Sequence record: OR525703.1
Reading direction: 5' to 3' (one strand)
Length of the DNA: 44,710 nucleotides
Origin: Escherichia phage vB-Eco-KMB36
Shown here piece by piece: positions 4,757 through 30,826 of this stretch; the first letter of the stretch is position 1, and each line of letters begins with the position of its first letter. The notes beneath the pieces were generated by a model. That model saw only the letters and a program-made list of their open reading frames with translations, was not told the DNA's origin and did not search any database. A program made the position numbers and the translations under genes.

Positions 4757-5215
4757 ATGGGCTTTTTCAAAGTAACTGATGTTCCGTCACGTCGCGTTGT
4801 CCAGTTTGCTCGCGTGTCTGGCTCCGGCGAGAACGTGGTGTCTATTGGGGACGAAAGTGTACTAGGTACACCGGTAGACGACATGCCGTTTGCTGACAAG
4901 ACTGGTATTGCGCAGCCCGCGGCGGGTATGCTTTATGTGATTCCGTATCTGGCTGACGCAGGCGACGTGTACTTCTCGGCGCAACCGCAGGACGCTGAAC
5001 TGGCAGACGGCAGTGCAACTATCACTGTCGAAGTTAAGGCGGGCAAAGCGCCGTATACGCTTACCTGGTACAAAGACGGAAAGGAAGTGGTAAACGCCCC
5101 TGAAGAGGCTTTGTCTCTGACGGTTAACGCGGTCGGTGAATACTTCGTTAAAGTCACCGATGCCGGTGGAGTGGAGGCTGTGAGTAAAGCGGCGAAGGTC
5201 ACTAAGCCAGAATGA
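4757..5215 (+). CDS. Ig-like domain protein (possible capsid decoration)
   Basis: 152-aa ORF; C-terminal Ig-like strand pattern TLTWYKDGKEV...YFVKVTD. Confidence 0.5.
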   Translation: MGFFKVTDVPSRRVVQFARVSGSGENVVSIGDESVLGTPVDDMPFADKTGIAQPAAGMLYVIPYLADAGDVYFSAQPQDAELADGSATITVEVKAGKAPYTLTWYKDGKEVVNAPEEALSLTVNAVGEYFVKVTDAGGVEAVSKAAKVTKPE

Positions 5216-5218
5216 TAA

Positions 5219-5241
5219 GAGGCCCCGAAAGGGGCTTTTTT
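5219..5241 (+). terminator. rho-independent terminator
   Basis: GGCCCCGAAAGGGGC hairpin followed by TTTTTT. Confidence 0.7.
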
Positions 5242-5305
5242 AATGTCTGTGATTATTCCAGTTATTCCGCTCAATTGTAAATGTTGGAATAAACTATTCG
5301 AATAG

Positions 5306-5334
5306 TTGACTTTTCACTAAAAATGTGCTAAGCT
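5306..5334 (+). promoter_or_regulatory. sigma70-like promoter (copy 1 of repeated element)
   Basis: TTGACT, 17-nt spacer, TGcTAAGCT extended -10; CTATTCGAATAG palindrome abuts the -35. Confidence 0.5.
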
Positions 5335-5340
5335 CCACCT

Positions 5341-5541
5341 GAGCTTGTGAAGTATGAACAAGCGACCGCGGCGCGGGCAGGTAACGGAGCGGGACGTAAG
5401 TCCTGAGTGTAGTTACGCTGACGCGTTCGGAAGGGCCATACTCTATTGCTTGTGTAAAAAGTAACTGGTTTACTGAGATTACGCCGTTTCTATGTTTAAA
5501 TGATAAGGACTAGCGCCCCGCTTTATGGCGGGGCTTTACTT
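5341..5541 (+). ncRNA. candidate small RNA of about 200 nt, paralog A
   Basis: No ORF; bounded by the promoter and a GCCCCG/CGGGGC hairpin plus U-tract at 5513..5541; conserved 5-prime hairpin GCTTGT..ACAAGC and box TTCGGAAGGGCCATA shared with the copy at 36997..37210. Confidence 0.35.
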
Positions 5542-5558
5542 ATCGAGAAAGGAGAAAC

Positions 5559-5945
5559 ATGAATCTTAAAGCAACTGTCGTAGCGGGCGCATGTTTCATA
5601 ATCCTGGCTTACGCACACGGCATCTACCAGTATCGCATCGGCTGGAACGAAGGCCGGGCGAATCTCGTTTCGCAGCAACAGCAGAAAGCACAGGCTGAGT
5701 TAGCGAAGAAAACACAACGGCAGCAGCAGGATGAATCAAAGGCCGCGGCAGCTGACAACGAAGGCAAGACGAAATCAGAGGTGATTACCCGTGAAGTCGT
5801 TAAGTACATTAAAACGCCTGGTCGCAGCGTGTGCACTTTCGACGATGCTCGCGTCCTGCTCAAGTCCCGCGCCGTCGCAAACGCCAATTCCATCCCCGGA
5901 TACGACGATGATGCAGCCTCCGTGCAAACTGGCGCCGCCAAGTAG
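5559..5945 (+). CDS. Rz-like i-spanin
   Basis: N-terminal transmembrane segment VVAGACFIILAYA then Q/A/K-rich coiled-coil region; Rz1-like ORF embedded in +1 frame. Confidence 0.55.
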   Translation: MNLKATVVAGACFIILAYAHGIYQYRIGWNEGRANLVSQQQQKAQAELAKKTQRQQQDESKAAAADNEGKTKSEVITREVVKYIKTPGRSVCTFDDARVLLKSRAVANANSIPGYDDDAASVQTGAAK

Positions 5946-6054
5946 CGACGCGGACGAGGATTTAGCTATCGACGTCCAGAACGCCGAATGTGTGCGGCAA
6001 CTGAGACTGAAAGTGTTCATGTTGCAGGATTACGTGAGGAATATTCTGGAATAG
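5791..6054 (+). CDS. Rz1-like o-spanin lipoprotein
   Basis: Signal peptide with lipobox LASC, then proline-rich mature region; +1 frame relative to the Rz-like gene and extending past its stop. Confidence 0.6.
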   Translation: MKSLSTLKRLVAACALSTMLASCSSPAPSQTPIPSPDTTMMQPPCKLAPPSSDADEDLAIDVQNAECVRQLRLKVFMLQDYVRNILE

Positions 6055-6136
6055 TTGCCTTGTATGTTGGAATAATTTATTCTTGACATGTAAATCCGGG
6101 AGGCCCGGATTCCAACGTCCAGGGGACATACTGACT

Positions 6137-10803: not shown

Positions 10804-11216
10804 TGGGCTACTTTGAGGACTTAACAAAAGCGTTCGACGTGCCGCTGGTAGCCTTCGGAACCGCCAACGGCATCAAGGTTGCGCTTGAAAACATCGACGC
10901 GCCGACGTCAACCGATACGCCGTATCTGGCAAGTTACATGTTACTTGCGGATACAGAACAGGCGGATTTGTTCTTCACAGAACAACGCTCAGGTGTTTAT
11001 CAGGTCGACATTAACTACGCATCGGTGAAAGGTAGCGCGCCAATCAATAAAATGGCAGACTTACTTAACACGGCGTTTAAAGCAGGTAAGTCATTTTCGC
11101 GTAACGACATCTGCGCCGAGGTTCAATCGGTTAGCCTGGGGCCGCTGATTGTAGAAAACGGATGGGCCAAACGACCATTGTCAATTAACTTTATTGCATT
11201 CACCAAGAGGCTGTGA
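10800..11216 (+). CDS. tail terminator-like protein
   Basis: Position immediately upstream of major tail gene. Confidence 0.4.
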   Translation: MMGYFEDLTKAFDVPLVAFGTANGIKVALENIDAPTSTDTPYLASYMLLADTEQADLFFTEQRSGVYQVDINYASVKGSAPINKMADLLNTAFKAGKSFSRNDICAEVQSVSLGPLIVENGWAKRPLSINFIAFTKRL

Positions 11217-11218
11217 AT

Positions 11219-12385
11219 ATGGCTACAACTCCTTTTAAGGGCGCGAATACCGCGCAATTCTATGTGGCGGAAGTGACCCCTGGCGTAACACCGACTAACC
11301 CGGTCTGGTCGCCGTTGCGTAACACTGGCGGTGTTCCTGCGGTAACCCGCGATGCGCTGACTTCCAACGAACTCGACGGCAGCAGAGAAACCACATCCAT
11401 CCGCACCGGTAACAAACAGGTTAGCGGGGAGTACGCCATCGAACTTAGCTCACGTAGCCAGGATGATTTCCTTGCGGGTGCTATGACTTCTACGTGGCAG
11501 GACGGGGTAGAGATTACGGGTGCTGAAATTACGGTCGCTCCAGCGGGTAAAACATTCACCCGCGCTGCCGGTAGCTTCATTACTGACGGTGTAGAGGTTG
11601 GCGACCTGATTGCATTCACCGACTTAACCGGCGACAACGCAAAACCGTTTATCGTGACCGCGGTTTCTGCTCTTGTAGTTACGGGTGCGGGTATCCAGCA
11701 CACGCTGACAGCAGAGACTGTAACCACCGACGCTAAAACAGGCGATAAATTGGAAACCGGTAACGCATGTAAGACGTTCTCCATCCTGACATGGTTCAAA
11801 GGACAGTGCGGGAACCCTGACGCGTACATGCTGACCAAAGGCGTGGAAATCTCCGGTTTCACCATTGAACAGGCCGTAAACGCGATGGTGACAGGCAGCT
11901 TCCCGTTCATCGGCCTGAGCCAGGAGATTCTTTCCGGGCCGCCGGAAGGTTCCGACTTCTCTCAGGTCACATTCACTGACGAGCCGTTCTCTTCTGTAGA
12001 TGTGTCTGTGTTCGACGGTTCTACGCCGTTGCGTTGCGATACTCTTACCATAACCAACGACAACGGTGCGTCCGCACAGTTCGAACTAGGAAACAGTAGC
12101 GTTGCGTTCGTAGAACGTGGCCGCGCGGCTAACACATTCTCCATCTCCGGCAAGCTGTACGACATGGCGATGATTCAGAAGTTTATCAACGAGCAGCAGG
12201 TAGAGATTAACTCTATTCTGGCGGGGGTAAACGGGGCTATGTCTTTCAGTTTGAAACGTGCAGAGCTTACGGCGGTTACACCAGAAATATCAGGCCCAGA
12301 GTCAATCACTCAGAGCATAGAAGGACAGTCCACAGGCAATCAATATCAATCTTCTATTGTAATACAGCGTATTAGCTACGCGTAA
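11219..12385 (+). CDS. major tail (tube) protein
   Basis: About 390-aa ORF with AAGAGG RBS, followed by strong terminator; position upstream of chaperone and tape measure. Confidence 0.6.
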   Translation: MATTPFKGANTAQFYVAEVTPGVTPTNPVWSPLRNTGGVPAVTRDALTSNELDGSRETTSIRTGNKQVSGEYAIELSSRSQDDFLAGAMTSTWQDGVEITGAEITVAPAGKTFTRAAGSFITDGVEVGDLIAFTDLTGDNAKPFIVTAVSALVVTGAGIQHTLTAETVTTDAKTGDKLETGNACKTFSILTWFKGQCGNPDAYMLTKGVEISGFTIEQAVNAMVTGSFPFIGLSQEILSGPPEGSDFSQVTFTDEPFSSVDVSVFDGSTPLRCDTLTITNDNGASAQFELGNSSVAFVERGRAANTFSISGKLYDMAMIQKFINEQQVEINSILAGVNGAMSFSLKRAELTAVTPEISGPESITQSIEGQSTGNQYQSSIVIQRISYA

Positions 12386-12390
12386 GGAAA

Positions 12391-12416
12391 AGGCCCCGAA
12401 AGGGGCCTTACTATTT
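12391..12416. terminator. terminator hairpin shared by convergent genes
   Basis: AGGCCCCGAAAGGGGCCT hairpin between the major tail gene end and the minus-strand HNH gene end. Confidence 0.6.
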
Positions 12417-12899
12417 ACCGTGGTTCTCGTGGAACCCTAAATCTCTTTCAGCAACTCTCCTCGCGGCAACTGCATCTAGTAGCGTTTTAAAGCATCCGAT
12501 GTGTGTTTTTACGTTATTGTTGAATATCTGTGCGTACCACAACCTTTCTTTCGCGTTCCAGTAAACCCCGGTTACTCCTGATTTATTATTACGCTGTTTT
12601 GACATATTTTTATGGTTTTCCGCATTGGACTTTTTAGCTAAGTTAAGCGGTCTATTGTTTATTCGGTTATGGTCTAGATGGTCTATTTGATCTGACGAGG
12701 TTAGCTTATCGTTAGGATTGTTTAAGTCCCAAGCTATACGGTGCGCCGCGTGCCATTTACCTCTGAAAAATATCCTTCTATATCCGTCTCGCTGTACAGT
12801 ACCTGCCTCCTCTCCAGCCTTAGCCCTCCCGGAACGTGTTACTCTGTTAAATATCCTTCCTGAAATTAAGTCGTATATGAAAAATTCATTCCAGTCCAT
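12411..12899 (-). CDS. HNH homing endonuclease with AP2 DNA-binding domain
   Basis: IDHLDHNRINNRPLNL HNH core and AP2-like SGVTGVYWNAKERLWYAQI; start taken at the ATG 6 nt after AGGAG. Confidence 0.75.
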   Translation of the reverse strand: MDWNEFFIYDLISGRIFNRVTRSGRAKAGEEAGTVQRDGYRRIFFRGKWHAAHRIAWDLNNPNDKLTSSDQIDHLDHNRINNRPLNLAKKSNAENHKNMSKQRNNKSGVTGVYWNAKERLWYAQIFNNNVKTHIGCFKTLLDAVAARRVAERDLGFHENHGK

Positions 12900-12918
12900 A
12901 ATCATCTCCTGTTGCGAT

Positions 12919-12943
12919 AAGGCCCCGAAAGGGGCCTTTTTCT
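12919..12943 (+). terminator. terminator-like hairpin
   Basis: AAGGCCCCGAAAGGGGCC followed by TTTTTCT on the plus strand. Confidence 0.5.
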
Positions 12944-13173
12944 CACTCATCAATATTACTCCTGTACTCCCGTAACTTCTCCAGACTTTCAATTGCTTCA
13001 GCTAAGTCTGTTCCGGTGTCCTTGTGGCCACGCAAGCCCATACACAACAGCTTCTTCAATGCGTGTTGCAACGCCGGGTCGCGGATGTCGAAGGCACGCA
13101 GCACATCGTAAACGTCTACCGTCATAGTGCTGCCGTGGGTATTTGTCATTGTGCGGTTGTATTTATTTGTCAC
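12943..13173 (-). CDS. hypothetical protein
   Basis: 76-aa ORF, coupled to neighbours. Confidence 0.4.
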   Translation of the reverse strand: MTNKYNRTMTNTHGSTMTVDVYDVLRAFDIRDPALQHALKKLLCMGLRGHKDTGTDLAEAIESLEKLREYRSNIDE

Positions 13174-13363
13174 TGTTAACTCTCTTAAATCGGGCTATGC
13201 CTGACTCGTTAATGTTGCCTATTTCAAAGAAGCTGCGATATTTAGGCGAATACATTCTTACGTCGCCATTCTCTAGGGTGACCCCTTCATATACAGCGCC
13301 TACTTCGAATCCATTTTTCTCCGCGTACGGACTCACATCGGTGCATTCATACATATCTTTCAT
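13163..13363 (-). CDS. hypothetical protein
   Basis: 66-aa ORF. Confidence 0.4.
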   Translation of the reverse strand: MKDMYECTDVSPYAEKNGFEVGAVYEGVTLENGDVRMYSPKYRSFFEIGNINESGIARFKRVNSDK

Positions 13364-14490
13364 CCCAGCATCTCCGGTGAAATAGTTAAACGTGCGACCT
13401 CGCCATATTCGGCACTATAGGTAATTACATTTGCACTACGACCTGACATCCACCCGCCGCGGGAGGCGTAGGCGTCTTTAGCTGCTAAGGTGCGGTGTTG
13501 CTCAACAATCATGTTACGGCTTTCTACAATCTTCTGGTGGTGTAGGTGGCCTACGTGGGCGTAGCTGTAAACGCTCTCTCCGAACGCTTTGCGGAACTTG
13601 GCAATCATAACTGGCTCGATAGCGTCGAATCGTGCTTTATGCCCGTGGTGGAAGAACAGCGTCGTTTTGCCGTGTTGAACCATCTTGTAAACATCCGGCG
13701 ACGTATCGACGAACACACGCGGCTCATTGTCGTACAGCGTACTGAACATCTCAGCCAGCCAAATCATCCCGCTTTCGTCGTGGTTCCCTTGCACGATAAG
13801 CAAGCGAACAGTTTTATGCTTAACCAGTGCCATATCGACAACACGGCGTACCATACGAATCATGTAGCGGACCAGTTTCTGATAACGAGTGTCCGCATCA
13901 AGAACATGACCACTCGCTGGCGTAACCGCATCCAGACTATCGAAGTGCGCGAAGTCACCCAGCAGGTTAATAACCCCAGTTCCTGCATCTGGTGCTTTTT
14001 GAAATGCAGCATCAAACCAGCGGGAGAACAGGTCTTCCGCAATCTTCATGTCCCAGTCGTCGCCGCTCTCGTCGGCCCAGGCCAGCATACCGAGATGGAA
14101 ATCAGACACGGTGTAAAGATTGAGCAGCTTGTCGTCGCGTTTGGCACGGGCCGCTTTAACCGGTGCAACGGGAGTAATCTCTGACTTCATGCCTTCGATT
14201 ATGGCTTTCATCAATTCAACCTGACGTTCGGCGTCAGTATCTGTCTTAACCCATTGCAGTTTAGTGTTGCCGAACTCGTCCACAAGCGACGACGTTCCTT
14301 TAATCTTGTAGCCGTCCGGGACAAGATGGCTAACGTCACGACCGTGACCTACGCCTTTCTTCGCCAGCTTCGCTTTACGGATACGAATAACTCGGTCTGA
14401 GATGCCGTATTTACGGGATATGTCGATAATCTTTGTTCCGGCGTTCAATTCTTCCTGTAACTGTTCGTCGGTTATTTTAATCTGGGCCAT
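13360..14490 (-). CDS. calcineurin-like metallophosphoesterase with N-terminal HTH
   Basis: Motifs VSDFHLG, GDFAHFD, GNHDE, HHGH, GHLHH; N-terminal IDISRKYGISDRVIRIRK HTH-like segment. Confidence 0.7.
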   Translation of the reverse strand: MAQIKITDEQLQEELNAGTKIIDISRKYGISDRVIRIRKAKLAKKGVGHGRDVSHLVPDGYKIKGTSSLVDEFGNTKLQWVKTDTDAERQVELMKAIIEGMKSEITPVAPVKAARAKRDDKLLNLYTVSDFHLGMLAWADESGDDWDMKIAEDLFSRWFDAAFQKAPDAGTGVINLLGDFAHFDSLDAVTPASGHVLDADTRYQKLVRYMIRMVRRVVDMALVKHKTVRLLIVQGNHDESGMIWLAEMFSTLYDNEPRVFVDTSPDVYKMVQHGKTTLFFHHGHKARFDAIEPVMIAKFRKAFGESVYSYAHVGHLHHQKIVESRNMIVEQHRTLAAKDAYASRGGWMSGRSANVITYSAEYGEVARLTISPEMLG

Positions 14491-14529
14491 GCTTTACTTC
14501 CTCGTGTTTAGGATTTGTCCTATACTAGC

Positions 14530-14721
14530 TCACTTCTCTTTGACATTCGAGTTGCAAGCCCAGATTAAAATAAATACCCACGGCAGCAGAACCCAGCCAA
14601 GAAACAGATTGGCCATGAATATCGCTAATTTCGCTTTATGACCCCGCATATGGGCCACTAAAAACGGGATAAAATAAACTAAAACGATAATGATTAAGAA
14701 GAACATAGTAATACCTGTCAT
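14530..14721 (-). CDS. small membrane protein
   Basis: 63 aa with two hydrophobic helices. Confidence 0.45.
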   Translation of the reverse strand: MTGITMFFLIIIVLVYFIPFLVAHMRGHKAKLAIFMANLFLGWVLLPWVFILIWACNSNVKEK

Positions 14722-14762
14722 GGTGTAGCTCCTGTTTGAGTTAACATTGTTGGTGTAAGTGA

Positions 14763-14791
14763 ATAGTATCCTATTATGTTGGGGTGTGCAA
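14763..14791 (-). promoter_or_regulatory. sigma70-like promoter with AATAG-N4-CTATT palindrome
   Basis: Minus strand reads TTGCAC, 17 nt, TACTAT; near-identical to the plus-strand promoter at 37252..37280. Confidence 0.5.
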
Positions 14792-14898
14792 GTAATGTGT
14801 TAGAATTATTTTGCGCCTAGTGTCGCACACGAAAAGCGGGTGGTTCCCGTCTGGCGCATTTTCCTTAACCTGTAACCTCTTAACCAAAGGATTAAAGA

Positions 14899-15315
14899 AT
14901 GAAACTTTCTGATTTTTATTACGAAGCTGAGGCAGAAAAAGGCGCCCGTATGCCAATACCACTGAAAGACGGCACCGATTCAGGGGAGTGGCTGAACGTT
15001 GTTTCACCGGAGGCAGACGTTGCCGTTAAAGCTATGAGGGCGTTTACACTTGCGTACCGCGCGGCATTAGGTAAATTGAAACCGCTTCGTGATAAATGTG
15101 AGGAACTGAAAGATTTCTCGGAATACAATATTAAGATGGAAGACGCCGCGACGGACCTTAACCGCCAGTTAGCACTTGAACTGGTTAACGGTTGGAGTCT
15201 CGACGATGAATTTAATAAAGAGAACCTGAACACTCTTTTCTCACAATATAAACGCCTCGCTGAACACGTTGTTGTTTTCCACAACGAACAGCTTCACCAA
15301 TTGCAGGAAAAGTAG
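14899..15315 (+). CDS. tail assembly chaperone (G-like)
   Basis: 138-aa ORF immediately upstream of tape measure; ends GAA AAG TAG. Confidence 0.6.
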   Translation: MKLSDFYYEAEAEKGARMPIPLKDGTDSGEWLNVVSPEADVAVKAMRAFTLAYRAALGKLKPLRDKCEELKDFSEYNIKMEDAATDLNRQLALELVNGWSLDDEFNKENLNTLFSQYKRLAEHVVVFHNEQLHQLQEK

Positions 15316-15320
15316 ACGCG

Positions 15321-15680
15321 TTGCTCCAGTTTGCCCGTTGGAACTTCATAACCCGCCACAAACGGCGGGAGTTTGACAGTATTGCCGACGGGCATAAAGC
15401 TGCGCTAATTGCTATGGGGGTTATGCAAGATGCGCCGGAAGCAACGCAGGATACCGGGCCAGAATGCCCCCCTGAACTACTAACCACCTTCGAGAAGTAC
15501 AGGGAAATCAAATTCACACGCCGAGTGGATGACGACGGCATCAAGATGTACCCGCGCGAACAGTTACGATGGTCGGATTTAGTGGCGTACAGCACCGTTT
15601 CAGGCCAGAATATAGGCATGTTTGAATCCGACATCATCATGAGCTTAGACGCTATTTTCGAGGGTAGAAACGATGGCTGA
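15321..15680 (+). CDS. tail assembly chaperone GT extension (likely -1 frameshift product)
   Basis: -1 frame is open from 15264 to 15680 and overlaps tape measure start; putative slip site at GGAAAAG 15306..15312. Confidence 0.5.
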   Translation: MLQFARWNFITRHKRREFDSIADGHKAALIAMGVMQDAPEATQDTGPECPPELLTTFEKYREIKFTRRVDDDGIKMYPREQLRWSDLVAYSTVSGQNIGMFESDIIMSLDAIFEGRNDG

Positions 15681-26574: not shown

Positions 26575-27070
26575 GGTTGCAAAACTCTCCGTGCAGTTTT
26601 GCCCTAAATTCTCTCAGCGATTCCTCTGCTTCATTTAGGTTCTGGAAATACCCAATCTGGTAGCGTGTACCTTTAAAAGCAACTCGAGCGCACCAAGCAT
26701 TATGAGGCTTACTCCAGTTAACCCCTTTCACGCCGCTGGTGTTCGTAACTGGGGTCTTGCGGTTATGGTTCTGTTGAAATTCATCCGCAAGCCGTAGGTT
26801 ACAAATCCGGTTATCGTCCCGTATGCCGTTAATATGGTCTATTTGCTTAGTTGGCATTTCTCCGTATACCCACCACCACGCCAGCCTGTGTGCGCGGTAA
26901 TACACCCTATTCCATCCTAACAATATGTACCCTTTACGGTCCTTGTAGGTAACAACATCTCCGGGTTTCGCGGTCTGGCATCTGTGCTTGACCCATTCAA
27001 ATATCCCGGTATCCGGGTCGTATGACAGAAAATTTTTTATGTCGTCACTTGGTGCTTTCATAATACGCAC
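26564..27070 (-). CDS. HNH homing endonuclease with AP2 domain
   Basis: QIDHINGIRDDNRICNL HNH core, AP2-like SGVKGVNWSKPHNAWCARV. Confidence 0.7.
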   Translation of the reverse strand: MRIMKAPSDDIKNFLSYDPDTGIFEWVKHRCQTAKPGDVVTYKDRKGYILLGWNRVYYRAHRLAWWWVYGEMPTKQIDHINGIRDDNRICNLRLADEFQQNHNRKTPVTNTSGVKGVNWSKPHNAWCARVAFKGTRYQIGYFQNLNEAEESLREFRAKLHGEFCNHGD

Positions 27071-30360: not shown

Positions 30361-30826
30361 GGCAATAAAATTCCTTGTGCAGTTTTTCTCTTAATTTCTT
30401 TACGGCGCTTTCTGCTTCTTCAAGAGTTCCGTAGCTACCAGCGTTATAACTTTTGTAGTTAAAATGTACACGCCCGTAAAATCGGTTGCCGTTTTTAACT
30501 ACTCCCTTAACTCCGGTTCTAGCTCCCTTATTTTTAGCGTTTCGCACATTATCAGCGGTTGTTGCTTTCCTTAGGTTAGAAATCCTATTGTCTAACCTGT
30601 CACGGTTTATATGGTCAAGAGGCCCCTCGGGCCATTCACCGTACTCGAAAAACCAAGCAAGCCTGTGGGCCATGTAATATCTACCCATATAAGGTATGCG
30701 CCAGTATCCACTACTATTGATGCACCCAGCGATGTCTCCGGGTTTTCCTCGTCTGTACGTAGGTTGTATCCATGTGAATATTCCGGTTTCTCGGTTATAA
30801 CTAAGAAAATCTTTTATATGTTCCAT
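30353..30826 (-). CDS. HNH homing endonuclease with AP2 domain
   Basis: LDHINRDRLDNRISNL HNH core, AP2-like TGVKGVVKNGNRFYGRV; start at ATG 30826 after GGAG; stop overlaps polymerase start. Confidence 0.7.
   Translation of the reverse strand: MEHIKDFLSYNRETGIFTWIQPTYRRGKPGDIAGCINSSGYWRIPYMGRYYMAHRLAWFFEYGEWPEGPLDHINRDRLDNRISNLRKATTADNVRNAKNKGARTGVKGVVKNGNRFYGRVHFNYKSYNAGSYGTLEEAESAVKKLREKLHKEFYCHD

Follow-up and report, generated by a model that had tools for sequence, protein, structure and literature searches.

A probable antisense accessory operon with a helix-turn-helix metallophosphoesterase gene in the tail module of Guernseyvirinae phages

Between the plus-strand tail-tube and chaperone genes of Escherichia phage vB-Eco-KMB36 (OR525703.1) lies a 2.4-kb block of five genes on the minus strand, whose anchor (13360..14490, minus strand) encodes a metallophosphoesterase of 376 amino acids (aa) with an N-terminal helix-turn-helix (HTH), here called MPP. 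We analyzed this block in the whole stretch of 44,710 nucleotides (nt), hereafter the window, and in related phages. Our overall reading, to which we assign a probability of about 0.6, is that the block is a resident antisense accessory operon for superinfection exclusion and host takeover, housed in a transcription gap of the tail module. This reading is built on the gene content, the conserved position, the variability of the slots beside MPP, the anatomy of an HNH endonuclease insertion, the intact catalytic motifs of MPP and its orthology with Bas01_0050 of phage Bas1.

Position and gene content of the block across Guernseyvirinae

As a comparison set, we used 73 IMG/VR loci encoding MPP relatives together with GenBank loci, onto which the window proteins were mapped. 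Loci that also contained the tail-tube and chaperone genes were classed as Guernseyvirinae-type, which gave 49 loci covering Kagunavirus, Jerseyvirus, and more distant relatives with tail-tube proteins ~70% identical to that of the window. The MPP gene was antisense between the tail-tube and chaperone genes in all 49. Because MPP occupies the same place throughout, the block is fixed in the subfamily rather than recently acquired, and it is very probably a conserved antisense accessory operon of Guernseyvirinae. A sequence-only reading of the window, made without database searches, had taken the block for a moron or mobile cassette of non-structural cargo, and had named as its refutation the same block, with a conserved structural function, at this position in all relatives. 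The shared position is what we found, without the conserved structural function: nothing points to a structural role, and non-structural accessory cargo on the opposite strand remains the fitting description.

That the whole 2.4-kb block is a recent moron or mobile cassette of this phage or of a few relatives is, in contrast, highly improbable, since it is already contradicted by the same position of MPP in 49 of 49 loci and two genera. Its opposite orientation, the promoter-like site and hairpins at its bounds, the AT-richness of three of its genes (those for the HNH endonuclease, the small protein p66 and the membrane protein Imm, with a GC content of 0.39-0.42) and the occurrence of the MPP gene elsewhere in other phage groups would all fit a recent arrival. 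However, the GC contents of the MPP gene (0.51) and of the gene for the small protein p76 (0.49) are typical of the genome (50.6%), and the flanking regulatory region, the 177 nt between the Imm and chaperone genes, is strongly conserved between genera. The mobile-cassette idea thus holds for the HNH gene and other slot cargo, and fails for the block as a whole.

Only the slots flanking MPP varied, and both were hypervariable among loci. In the left slot we found an Imm-type protein or else one of ~108-120 aa, unrelated to it, that bears a signal peptide, while the right slot spanned from 185 to 1,277 nt. The commonest right-slot occupant was p76 (27 of 49 loci), with p66 present in eight; in 17 loci a HAD_PNKP phosphatase and a P-loop kinase stood in place of p76, and elsewhere the slot contained a Rha/KilAC protein (Jerseyvirus) or an HNH gene, of which at least three kinds occurred and both orientations were seen.

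Outside the subfamily, the MPP gene was found at other genome positions. In Dhillonvirus HK578 it lies near the lysis genes at the genome end (76% identity), and in Rogunavirus phiKP26 and in Bas1 it stands between small early-type open reading frames (ORFs) and the lysis genes. A further locus, L039 (IMGVR_UViG_3300048927_000029), carries an 85%-identical MPP gene at 4986-6119, antisense between spanin and Hoc-like head-decoration genes in a head module made of the same PHROG families as that of Kagunavirus; this head module is a second "harbour" site for the gene. These positions indicate that the gene has relocated over long time scales, which is the surviving part of the mobile-cassette idea. 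Separately, a 13-kb scaffold labelled Taishania pollutisoli (Bacteroidota; L083, NZ_JACVEL010000023.1) is a Jerseyvirus fragment with the usual order of tape measure (80% identity), chaperone (93%), Imm, MPP, p76 and tail tube, and its label probably reflects contamination or a binning error.

A search with a 5-kb query around the block matched 482 GenBank phage records, the best of them Escherichia Kagunavirus genomes (87-95% identity), with Salmonella Jerseyvirus genomes ranking next in their hundreds; by this match pattern the window is a Kagunavirus-type genome of the subfamily Guernseyvirinae. Its composition profile and the annotated relative vB_VIPECOTH07 show that the structural genes, which extend to ~24.5 kb, are on the plus strand, and that the minus strand carries the replication genes. 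The block is bordered by the tail-tube gene (11213..12385, plus strand; PF18906, 2.6e-36) and by the chaperone gene (14899..15315, plus strand; PF08748), which is followed by a second chaperone gene (15321..15680, plus strand; PF23812). All five ORFs between these plus-strand genes were present as the sequence-only reading had described, and its small two-helix membrane protein, 376-aa HTH-metallophosphoesterase and two small proteins were confirmed by ORFs and family matches. The Imm, MPP, p66 and p76 genes have Shine-Dalgarno sequences and lie close together, with stop codons that overlap start codons, and the same gene order is annotated in GenBank relatives. Hundreds of annotated genomes already contain this arrangement, and its genes are members of known families; literature searches on the island in Guernseyvirinae returned annotation-level mentions only and no paper discussing the arrangement. 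In NCBIfam and PADLOC, a weak match to a homing endonuclease was the only family assignment obtained for the island proteins.

The first gene of the operon (14530..14721, minus strand; GC 0.391) encodes Imm, a 63-aa inner-membrane protein of the T4 Imm family with two hydrophobic stretches in its translation (~residues 5-23 and 33-55). It matched PF14373 (Imm_superinfect) with 51.6 bits against a cut-off of 27.9, as well as phrog_1039 (1.4e-23), and its predicted role is superinfection exclusion. Beyond MPP, p66 (13163..13363, minus strand; GC 0.423) begins with a start codon that overlaps the MPP stop codon and found no family match in Pfam or PHROG profile searches. The adjoining p76 (12943..13173, minus strand) matched phrog_2452 (8.6e-37) and occurs in 773 phage records from many genera, with no Pfam family found. 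Its N-terminus contains an imperfect 24-nt tandem duplication (13121-13168, minus strand; 71% identity) that encodes a repeated TMTN... stretch. Neither p76 nor p66 resembled the small ORFs beside the MPP gene in phiKP26 and HK578, which leaves MPP without a conserved small partner. Two complementarities of the Imm gene were also considered and rejected. A 16-nt match between its 3' end (14558-14573) and MPP codons 2-6 (14472-14487), a candidate stem for translational coupling, is perfect, among the loci examined, only in the window region and one other, is reduced to 7+7 in most Kagunavirus loci and is absent in Jerseyvirus; the two sides of a 17-nt match between Imm (14572-14588) and p76 codons 10-15 (13128-13144) vary independently in relatives. 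Both are probably by-products of coding sequence.

The phosphoesterase and its possible targets

MPP consists of an HTH of the sigma70-region-4/resolvase type (residues ~8-44), a beta-hairpin linker (~55-85) and a binuclear metallophosphoesterase domain (~119-376). It matched phrog_704 with an E value of 5.4e-165, residues 5-375 aligning with profile positions 3-389 of 390, and scored below the Pfam gathering thresholds of PF00149 (18.8 bits vs 21.5) and PF12850 (22.3 vs 27). Both PHROG and GenBank name it DNA repair exonuclease. Homologues were found by tblastn in 2,038 of 50,697 phage records, and the family comprises 4,635 cluster representatives at 50% identity, 1,158 of them with E <= 1e-30; among the best 150 of the 4,635, most are ~370-420 aa long and aligned over nearly the whole query. 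Searches of PDB sequences, with the protein and with a 14-member profile, returned no meaningful relative.

In an alignment of 14 homologues, which share 41-81% identity with the window MPP, all five metal-binding motifs are kept, and the metal ligands D130, H132, D179, H182, N236, H237, H282-H284, H315 and H317 are invariant or nearly so. The linker is strongly conserved as VPDGYxVKGxSxLxDxxGxxxxQWVKT, and MPP carries a family-specific C-terminal motif, EQHRTLAAKDAYASRGGW. The N-terminus of several members scores as an HTH of sigma-70 region 4, GerE or HTH_23 type. The GDxHG, GDxVDRG and GNHE signatures of PPP-type Ser/Thr phosphatases were not matched in MPP. Because two of the three large homologue searches gave near-identical proteins only, the alignment used for structure prediction was shallow (three clades) and the resulting model only moderate. 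The top neighbours of the predicted fold are nuclease-type metallophosphoesterases, with Mre11/SbcD, PolD-DP1 and MJ0936 about equally near (comparison figures of 11.1 for Mre11, 11.0 for MJ0936, 10.5 for PolD DP1, 10.2 for SbcD and 9.7 for GpdQ), and the HTH matches that of Tn3 resolvase.

The most informative relative is Bas01_0050 of phage Bas1 (MZ501051), a 376-aa protein that is 45% identical to the window MPP over the full length (E 2e-114), by which the two are orthologues. A preprint of February 2026 (10.64898/2026.02.16.706125) reported that Bas1 escapers of the defence system DRT7/UG10 carry missense or frameshift mutations in Bas01_0050, that the gene is dispensable for Bas1, and that its product is toxic to E. 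coli, so that co-expression with DRT7 was not possible. The same study mapped DRT7 escapers of lambda to gam, which encodes the RecBCD inhibitor. By its 45% identity to Bas01_0050, and as far as the preprint carries, the window MPP probably is not needed under laboratory conditions, harms the host and has a link with DNA metabolism. A precedent for such a protein comes from mycobacteriophage A10ZJ24, whose metallophosphoesterase Gp48 is early and toxic to the host and is reported to degrade host DNA and thereby blunt defence-gene expression (EMBO Rep 2025, PMC12287305).

Variation within the subfamily adds a further lead. In two Jerseyvirus loci, L006 (3001-4125) and L036 (5001-6128), the flanks are 92-94% identical at the nucleotide level and there is no amino acid difference in the chaperone, Imm or p76 (100% identity), whereas the MPP proteins share only 61%. 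Nucleotide homology in the gene ends ~305 nt in, which indicates that the HTH and linker were retained and the catalytic domain was swapped, a pattern that would fit an arms-race gene. In the 17 loci described above, a third of the total, the operon pairs MPP with genes for a Pnkp-type phosphatase and a P-loop kinase.

For the phosphoesterase, the sequence-only reading had named a phosphatase or nuclease acting on host signalling or DNA. Between these options a nucleic-acid target is the better one, given the HTH, the nuclease-type fold and the Bas01_0050 leads, and we tentatively propose, at slightly short of even odds, that MPP acts on DNA. A housekeeping function, in which MPP would be an Mre11/SbcD-like recombination and repair nuclease needed for phage replication, would agree with its annotation as a DNA repair exonuclease and with its conservation in every member of the subfamily, but we consider it distinctly unlikely. 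No Rad50/SbcC or DP2 partner is annotated in the close relative vB_VIPECOTH07 (no gene-by-gene scan of the window was made), and no Rad50/SbcC gene stood beside MPP in any locus examined. Moreover, frameshift mutants of the Bas1 orthologue are viable, the MPP gene is not part of the replication module, phages that are otherwise near-identical have exchanged its catalytic domain, and its product stays under the Pfam Metallophos thresholds.

It is also quite improbable that MPP acts as a phosphodiesterase on small molecules, with an HTH that is autoregulatory only; its targets would be other nucleotides or the cyclic nucleotides and oligonucleotides that serve as immune second messengers in CBASS, Pycsar, Thoeris or type III CRISPR. 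The location in an accessory operon next to an exclusion gene and the arms race suggested by the catalytic-domain swap are consistent with this idea. However, the fused HTH and its strongly conserved linker are retained across the family, the orthologue is toxic in uninfected E. coli, and the DNA-metabolism phenotype parallels that of lambda Gam. MPP is not known to resemble the anti-signalling enzymes Acb1 (2H fold) and Apyc1 (MBL fold).

The HNH gene and its duplicated hairpin

The HNH endonuclease gene (12411..12905, minus strand) forms the core of a 529-bp insertion. The mechanically called ORF is longer (12411..12992, 193 aa) and crosses the upstream hairpin, whereas an ATG at 12905 or 12899 comes after a GGAG and is most likely the true start; GenBank annotates a 489-nt version in phage Ro145clw. 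The protein matched HNH_3 marginally (25.9 bits vs a cut-off of 24.8) and phrog_99 with 1.5e-51. Its match to AP2 (PF00847) reached 15.6 bits against a cut-off of 33.3, with an E value of 0.021, and covered the first 27 model positions only. The HNH half of the earlier designation HNH-AP2 endonuclease is thus borne out, while the AP2 half stays below threshold; the gene is a free-standing HNH gene, with a possible AP2-like domain at the C-terminus of its product.

Two copies of the same 20-nt palindrome, AAGGCCCCGAAAGGGGCCTT, enclose this gene as part of a 23-nt direct repeat spaced 529 nt apart. Hairpin T1 (12391..12410), just past the tail-tube stop codon, has the form AAGGCCCC-GAAA-GGGGCCTT and belongs to copy 1 of the direct repeat (D1); its duplicate T2 (12921..12940) lies between the p76 stop and the HNH start. 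Folding energies were -15 to -18 kcal/mol (z -2.4 to -3.8), with T1 at -15.4 to -17.6. The flanking terminator hairpins described in the sequence-only reading therefore do exist as stable hairpins, but they bracket the HNH gene only and not the whole block.

The junction alignment clarified how this arrangement differs from that of relatives. Genomes without the HNH gene have the tail-tube stop, a single hairpin and the p76 stop in succession, whereas two copies of the hairpin bracket the HNH gene in the window, L009, L027 and Ro145clw. At this site, the gene was present in the window, L009, L027 and L080, and absent with a single intact hairpin in L007, L014, L017, L025 and L034. By this alignment T2 is the counterpart of the single bidirectional terminator in HNH-less genomes. 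The allele is rare: four GenBank records have at least 95% protein identity, and the next relatives, at 47% or less, are at other loci. Its GC content is 41.6%, against 50.6% for the genome. Since close relatives differ in the presence or absence of the gene at precisely one site, the HNH gene is, by this comparison, a mobile insertion.

The sequences beyond the two stems suggest how transcription might be divided between them. T1 is followed on the minus strand by a U-tract, UUUUCCUU, and T2 on the plus strand by another, UUUUUCUC, with none in its minus direction. On this basis, minus-strand transcripts would pass T2 into the HNH gene and end at T1, probably the terminator of the accessory operon, and tail-tube transcripts would end mainly at T2.

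We also compared the hairpin loops of T1 and T2 with those at the same site in L003, L007, L009, L014, L017, L025, L027 and L034. The stem is the same throughout, with a loop of either GAAA or TTTC depending on the genome, as though the whole hairpin had been inverted, and the hairpin may be a recombination joint for cassette exchange. Two more HNH-type ORFs, at 26636-27031 and 30422-30751 (both minus strand), lie in the half of the window that contains the replication module and are ~31% identical to the island HNH protein.

Regulatory region, proposed model and known counterparts

The region between the Imm and chaperone genes contains candidate promoters in both directions. The minus-strand sigma70 candidate (14763..14791), TTGCAC-17-TACTAT, aligns with the same spacing to a better Jerseyvirus counterpart, TTGCAT-17-TATTAT, and GCAAG at the -35 element is invariant. 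The claim that the block has its own promoter at this site is thus favoured by position and spacing conserved with Jerseyvirus and weakened by a poor match that, in the window alone, is indistinguishable from chance; we regard the promoter as plausible. A divergent plus-strand candidate promoter (14779..14806), TTGGGG-16-TAGAAT, has the extended -10 element TGnTAGAAT, whose n is the one position to differ between Kagunavirus loci. The conservation of this element, which ends at 14806, suggests that the tail genes downstream of the island form a separate transcription unit. Both this candidate and a second one on the plus strand (14741-14769) stand back to back with the island promoter.

Immediately downstream of the divergent promoter, we found an int-alpA-type RNA (Rfam RF02996; 14810..14874, plus strand) where the chaperone/tape-measure transcript is predicted to begin. 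The full model length was matched with 33.5 bits (E 1.8e-4) against a gathering score of 35.8, and a whole-window Rfam scan at the gathering threshold gave 0 matches. The core pattern occurred in 48 sequences (47 loci and the window region) as nine variants, and a relaxed pattern added one more locus, L072. Across 13 distinct variants, 93.4% of cells were paired, compared with 35-52% in slid controls; compensatory changes affect both bases of four pairs, helices P1, P2 and P3 are supported, and P2 reads GUG/CAC, CGG/CCG or CCG/CGG. We predict that the element marks the island boundary and is the 5' leader of the chaperone/tape-measure transcript.

A role of this leader as an attenuator or terminator was considered and set aside. 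The U-rich tract that follows P1 in the window is not conserved, Jerseyvirus having AACUACC there, and for want of a conserved U-tract the element was not taken for a terminator. A scan of bacterial genomes with the exact leader pattern found 12 loci in Betaproteobacteria with unrelated downstream ORFs, as well as the Jerseyvirus fragment L083, and revealed no function. In the 12 loci (L084-L095, on Zoogloea, Accumulibacter and Laribacter contigs), the int-alpA core has a longer P3 loop and precedes unrelated, variable ORFs; a conserved GAAGG(A)GCGC element follows the core, ~20-40 nt ahead of the ORF start.

These elements can be combined with predicted promoter and terminator usage, a predicted exclusion role of Imm and a DNA-directed activity of MPP into a model of the locus. 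The boundary between the tail-tube and chaperone genes would divide the tail module into two transcription units, with the operon filling the gap: the tail-tube gene would end at a bidirectional hairpin terminator, the chaperone and tape-measure genes would restart from their own promoter with the int-alpA-type leader, and the operon would probably be transcribed from the weak divergent sigma70 promoter. Imm would block DNA entry of superinfecting phages. The HTH would tether MPP to DNA, where the metal centre may cut or trim the host chromosome or DNA ends, serving host takeover, counter-defence and nucleotide salvage or supply rather than essential replication. The HNH gene would be a selfish passenger that recently entered at the terminator as a 529-bp insertion, duplicated the hairpin, and is probably expressed by read-through of T2.

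Several points weigh against this model. The minus-strand promoter matches 7-8 of 12 consensus positions, falls below the scan threshold and is no better than nearby sites, and a simple terminator scan called neither hairpin. The structural model of MPP has a confidence score (pLDDT) of 69.7, which drops below 50 in the linker and in two loops, and the description of Bas01_0050 in the preprint as "putatively a nucleic acid-targeting phosphoesterase" is itself a prediction (10.64898/2026.02.16.706125). Imm, a membrane protein of just 63 aa, owes its assigned function to a Pfam match, and a Kagunavirus transcriptome (PMC12645636) places the Imm gene in the "late" class, albeit with very coarse time classes, whereas host-takeover genes would be expected early.

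The locus is of interest on several levels. The MPP family is large and has no Pfam, NCBIfam or PDB assignment, with one recent genetic link to DRT7 and toxicity. Kagunavirus and Jerseyvirus phages are easily grown and common candidates for phage therapy, and the natural catalytic-domain swaps among them provide ready-made isogenic comparisons. The site is a predictable hotspot for accessory genes, including those for exclusion, end healing and kinases, and homing endonucleases, which is relevant to screening therapeutic phages for cargo. For the int-alpA motif, the locus supplies a defined context, namely the beginning of the tail operon of a lytic phage. One could go further and see in MPP the founding example of a very large class of phage host-takeover and counter-defence nucleases on the DNA-end/RecBCD axis of lambda Gam, whose activity DRT7-type defences would sense and whose catalytic domain would be exchanged as a module; the site would then be an antisense "conflict locus" shared with an exclusion gene and insulated by the bidirectional terminator and the int-alpA leader, the latter also setting tail-gene dosage. 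We regard this extension as speculative and rather unlikely.

Compared with known systems, the block resembles the lambdoid morons in carrying non-structural cargo with its own putative promoter and terminator within a late structural operon. It differs in being fixed across a subfamily, without polymorphism among relatives, in having several genes, and in residing in strictly lytic phages. T4 Imm, at ~83 aa, is somewhat larger than the 63-aa island protein, which matches its family (PF14373) above the cut-off and is likewise small with two hydrophobic helices; other Guernseyvirinae differ by holding unrelated signal-peptide proteins in this slot. The HNH gene shares with free-standing HNH genes of phages (HNH_3/AP2, I-HmuI-like) the HNH_3 domain, the presence or absence at one intergenic site between conserved genes, and paralogues in the same genome. 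In contrast to them, the island insertion carries a copy of the resident terminator hairpin.

For MPP, the calcineurin-like fold with five phosphoesterase motifs is shared with Mre11/SbcD. Identity to Mre11/SbcD and PolD DP1 is only 10-15%, however, and MPP, which does not reach the Metallophos thresholds of Pfam, carries the motif EQHRTLAAKDAYASRGGW and an HTH at its N-terminus instead of their known accessory domains. Bas01_0050 of Bas1 (AugustePiccard, Drexlerviridae) has the same layout of HTH, linker and metallophosphoesterase domain and the same metal-binding motifs, and in both Bas1 and phiKP26 the MPP gene is followed by an annotated (putative) homing or HNH endonuclease gene. Unlike the gene in the window, that of Bas1 is co-directional with its neighbours and not antisense in a tail module, and toxicity and DRT7 escape are reported, in a preprint, for Bas01_0050 alone. 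Gp48 of A10ZJ24 belongs to another subfamily and has motif I at residue 10, so it lacks an N-terminal HTH; as a toxic metallophosphoesterase encoded by a phage, it nevertheless provides a precedent for the role inferred for MPP.

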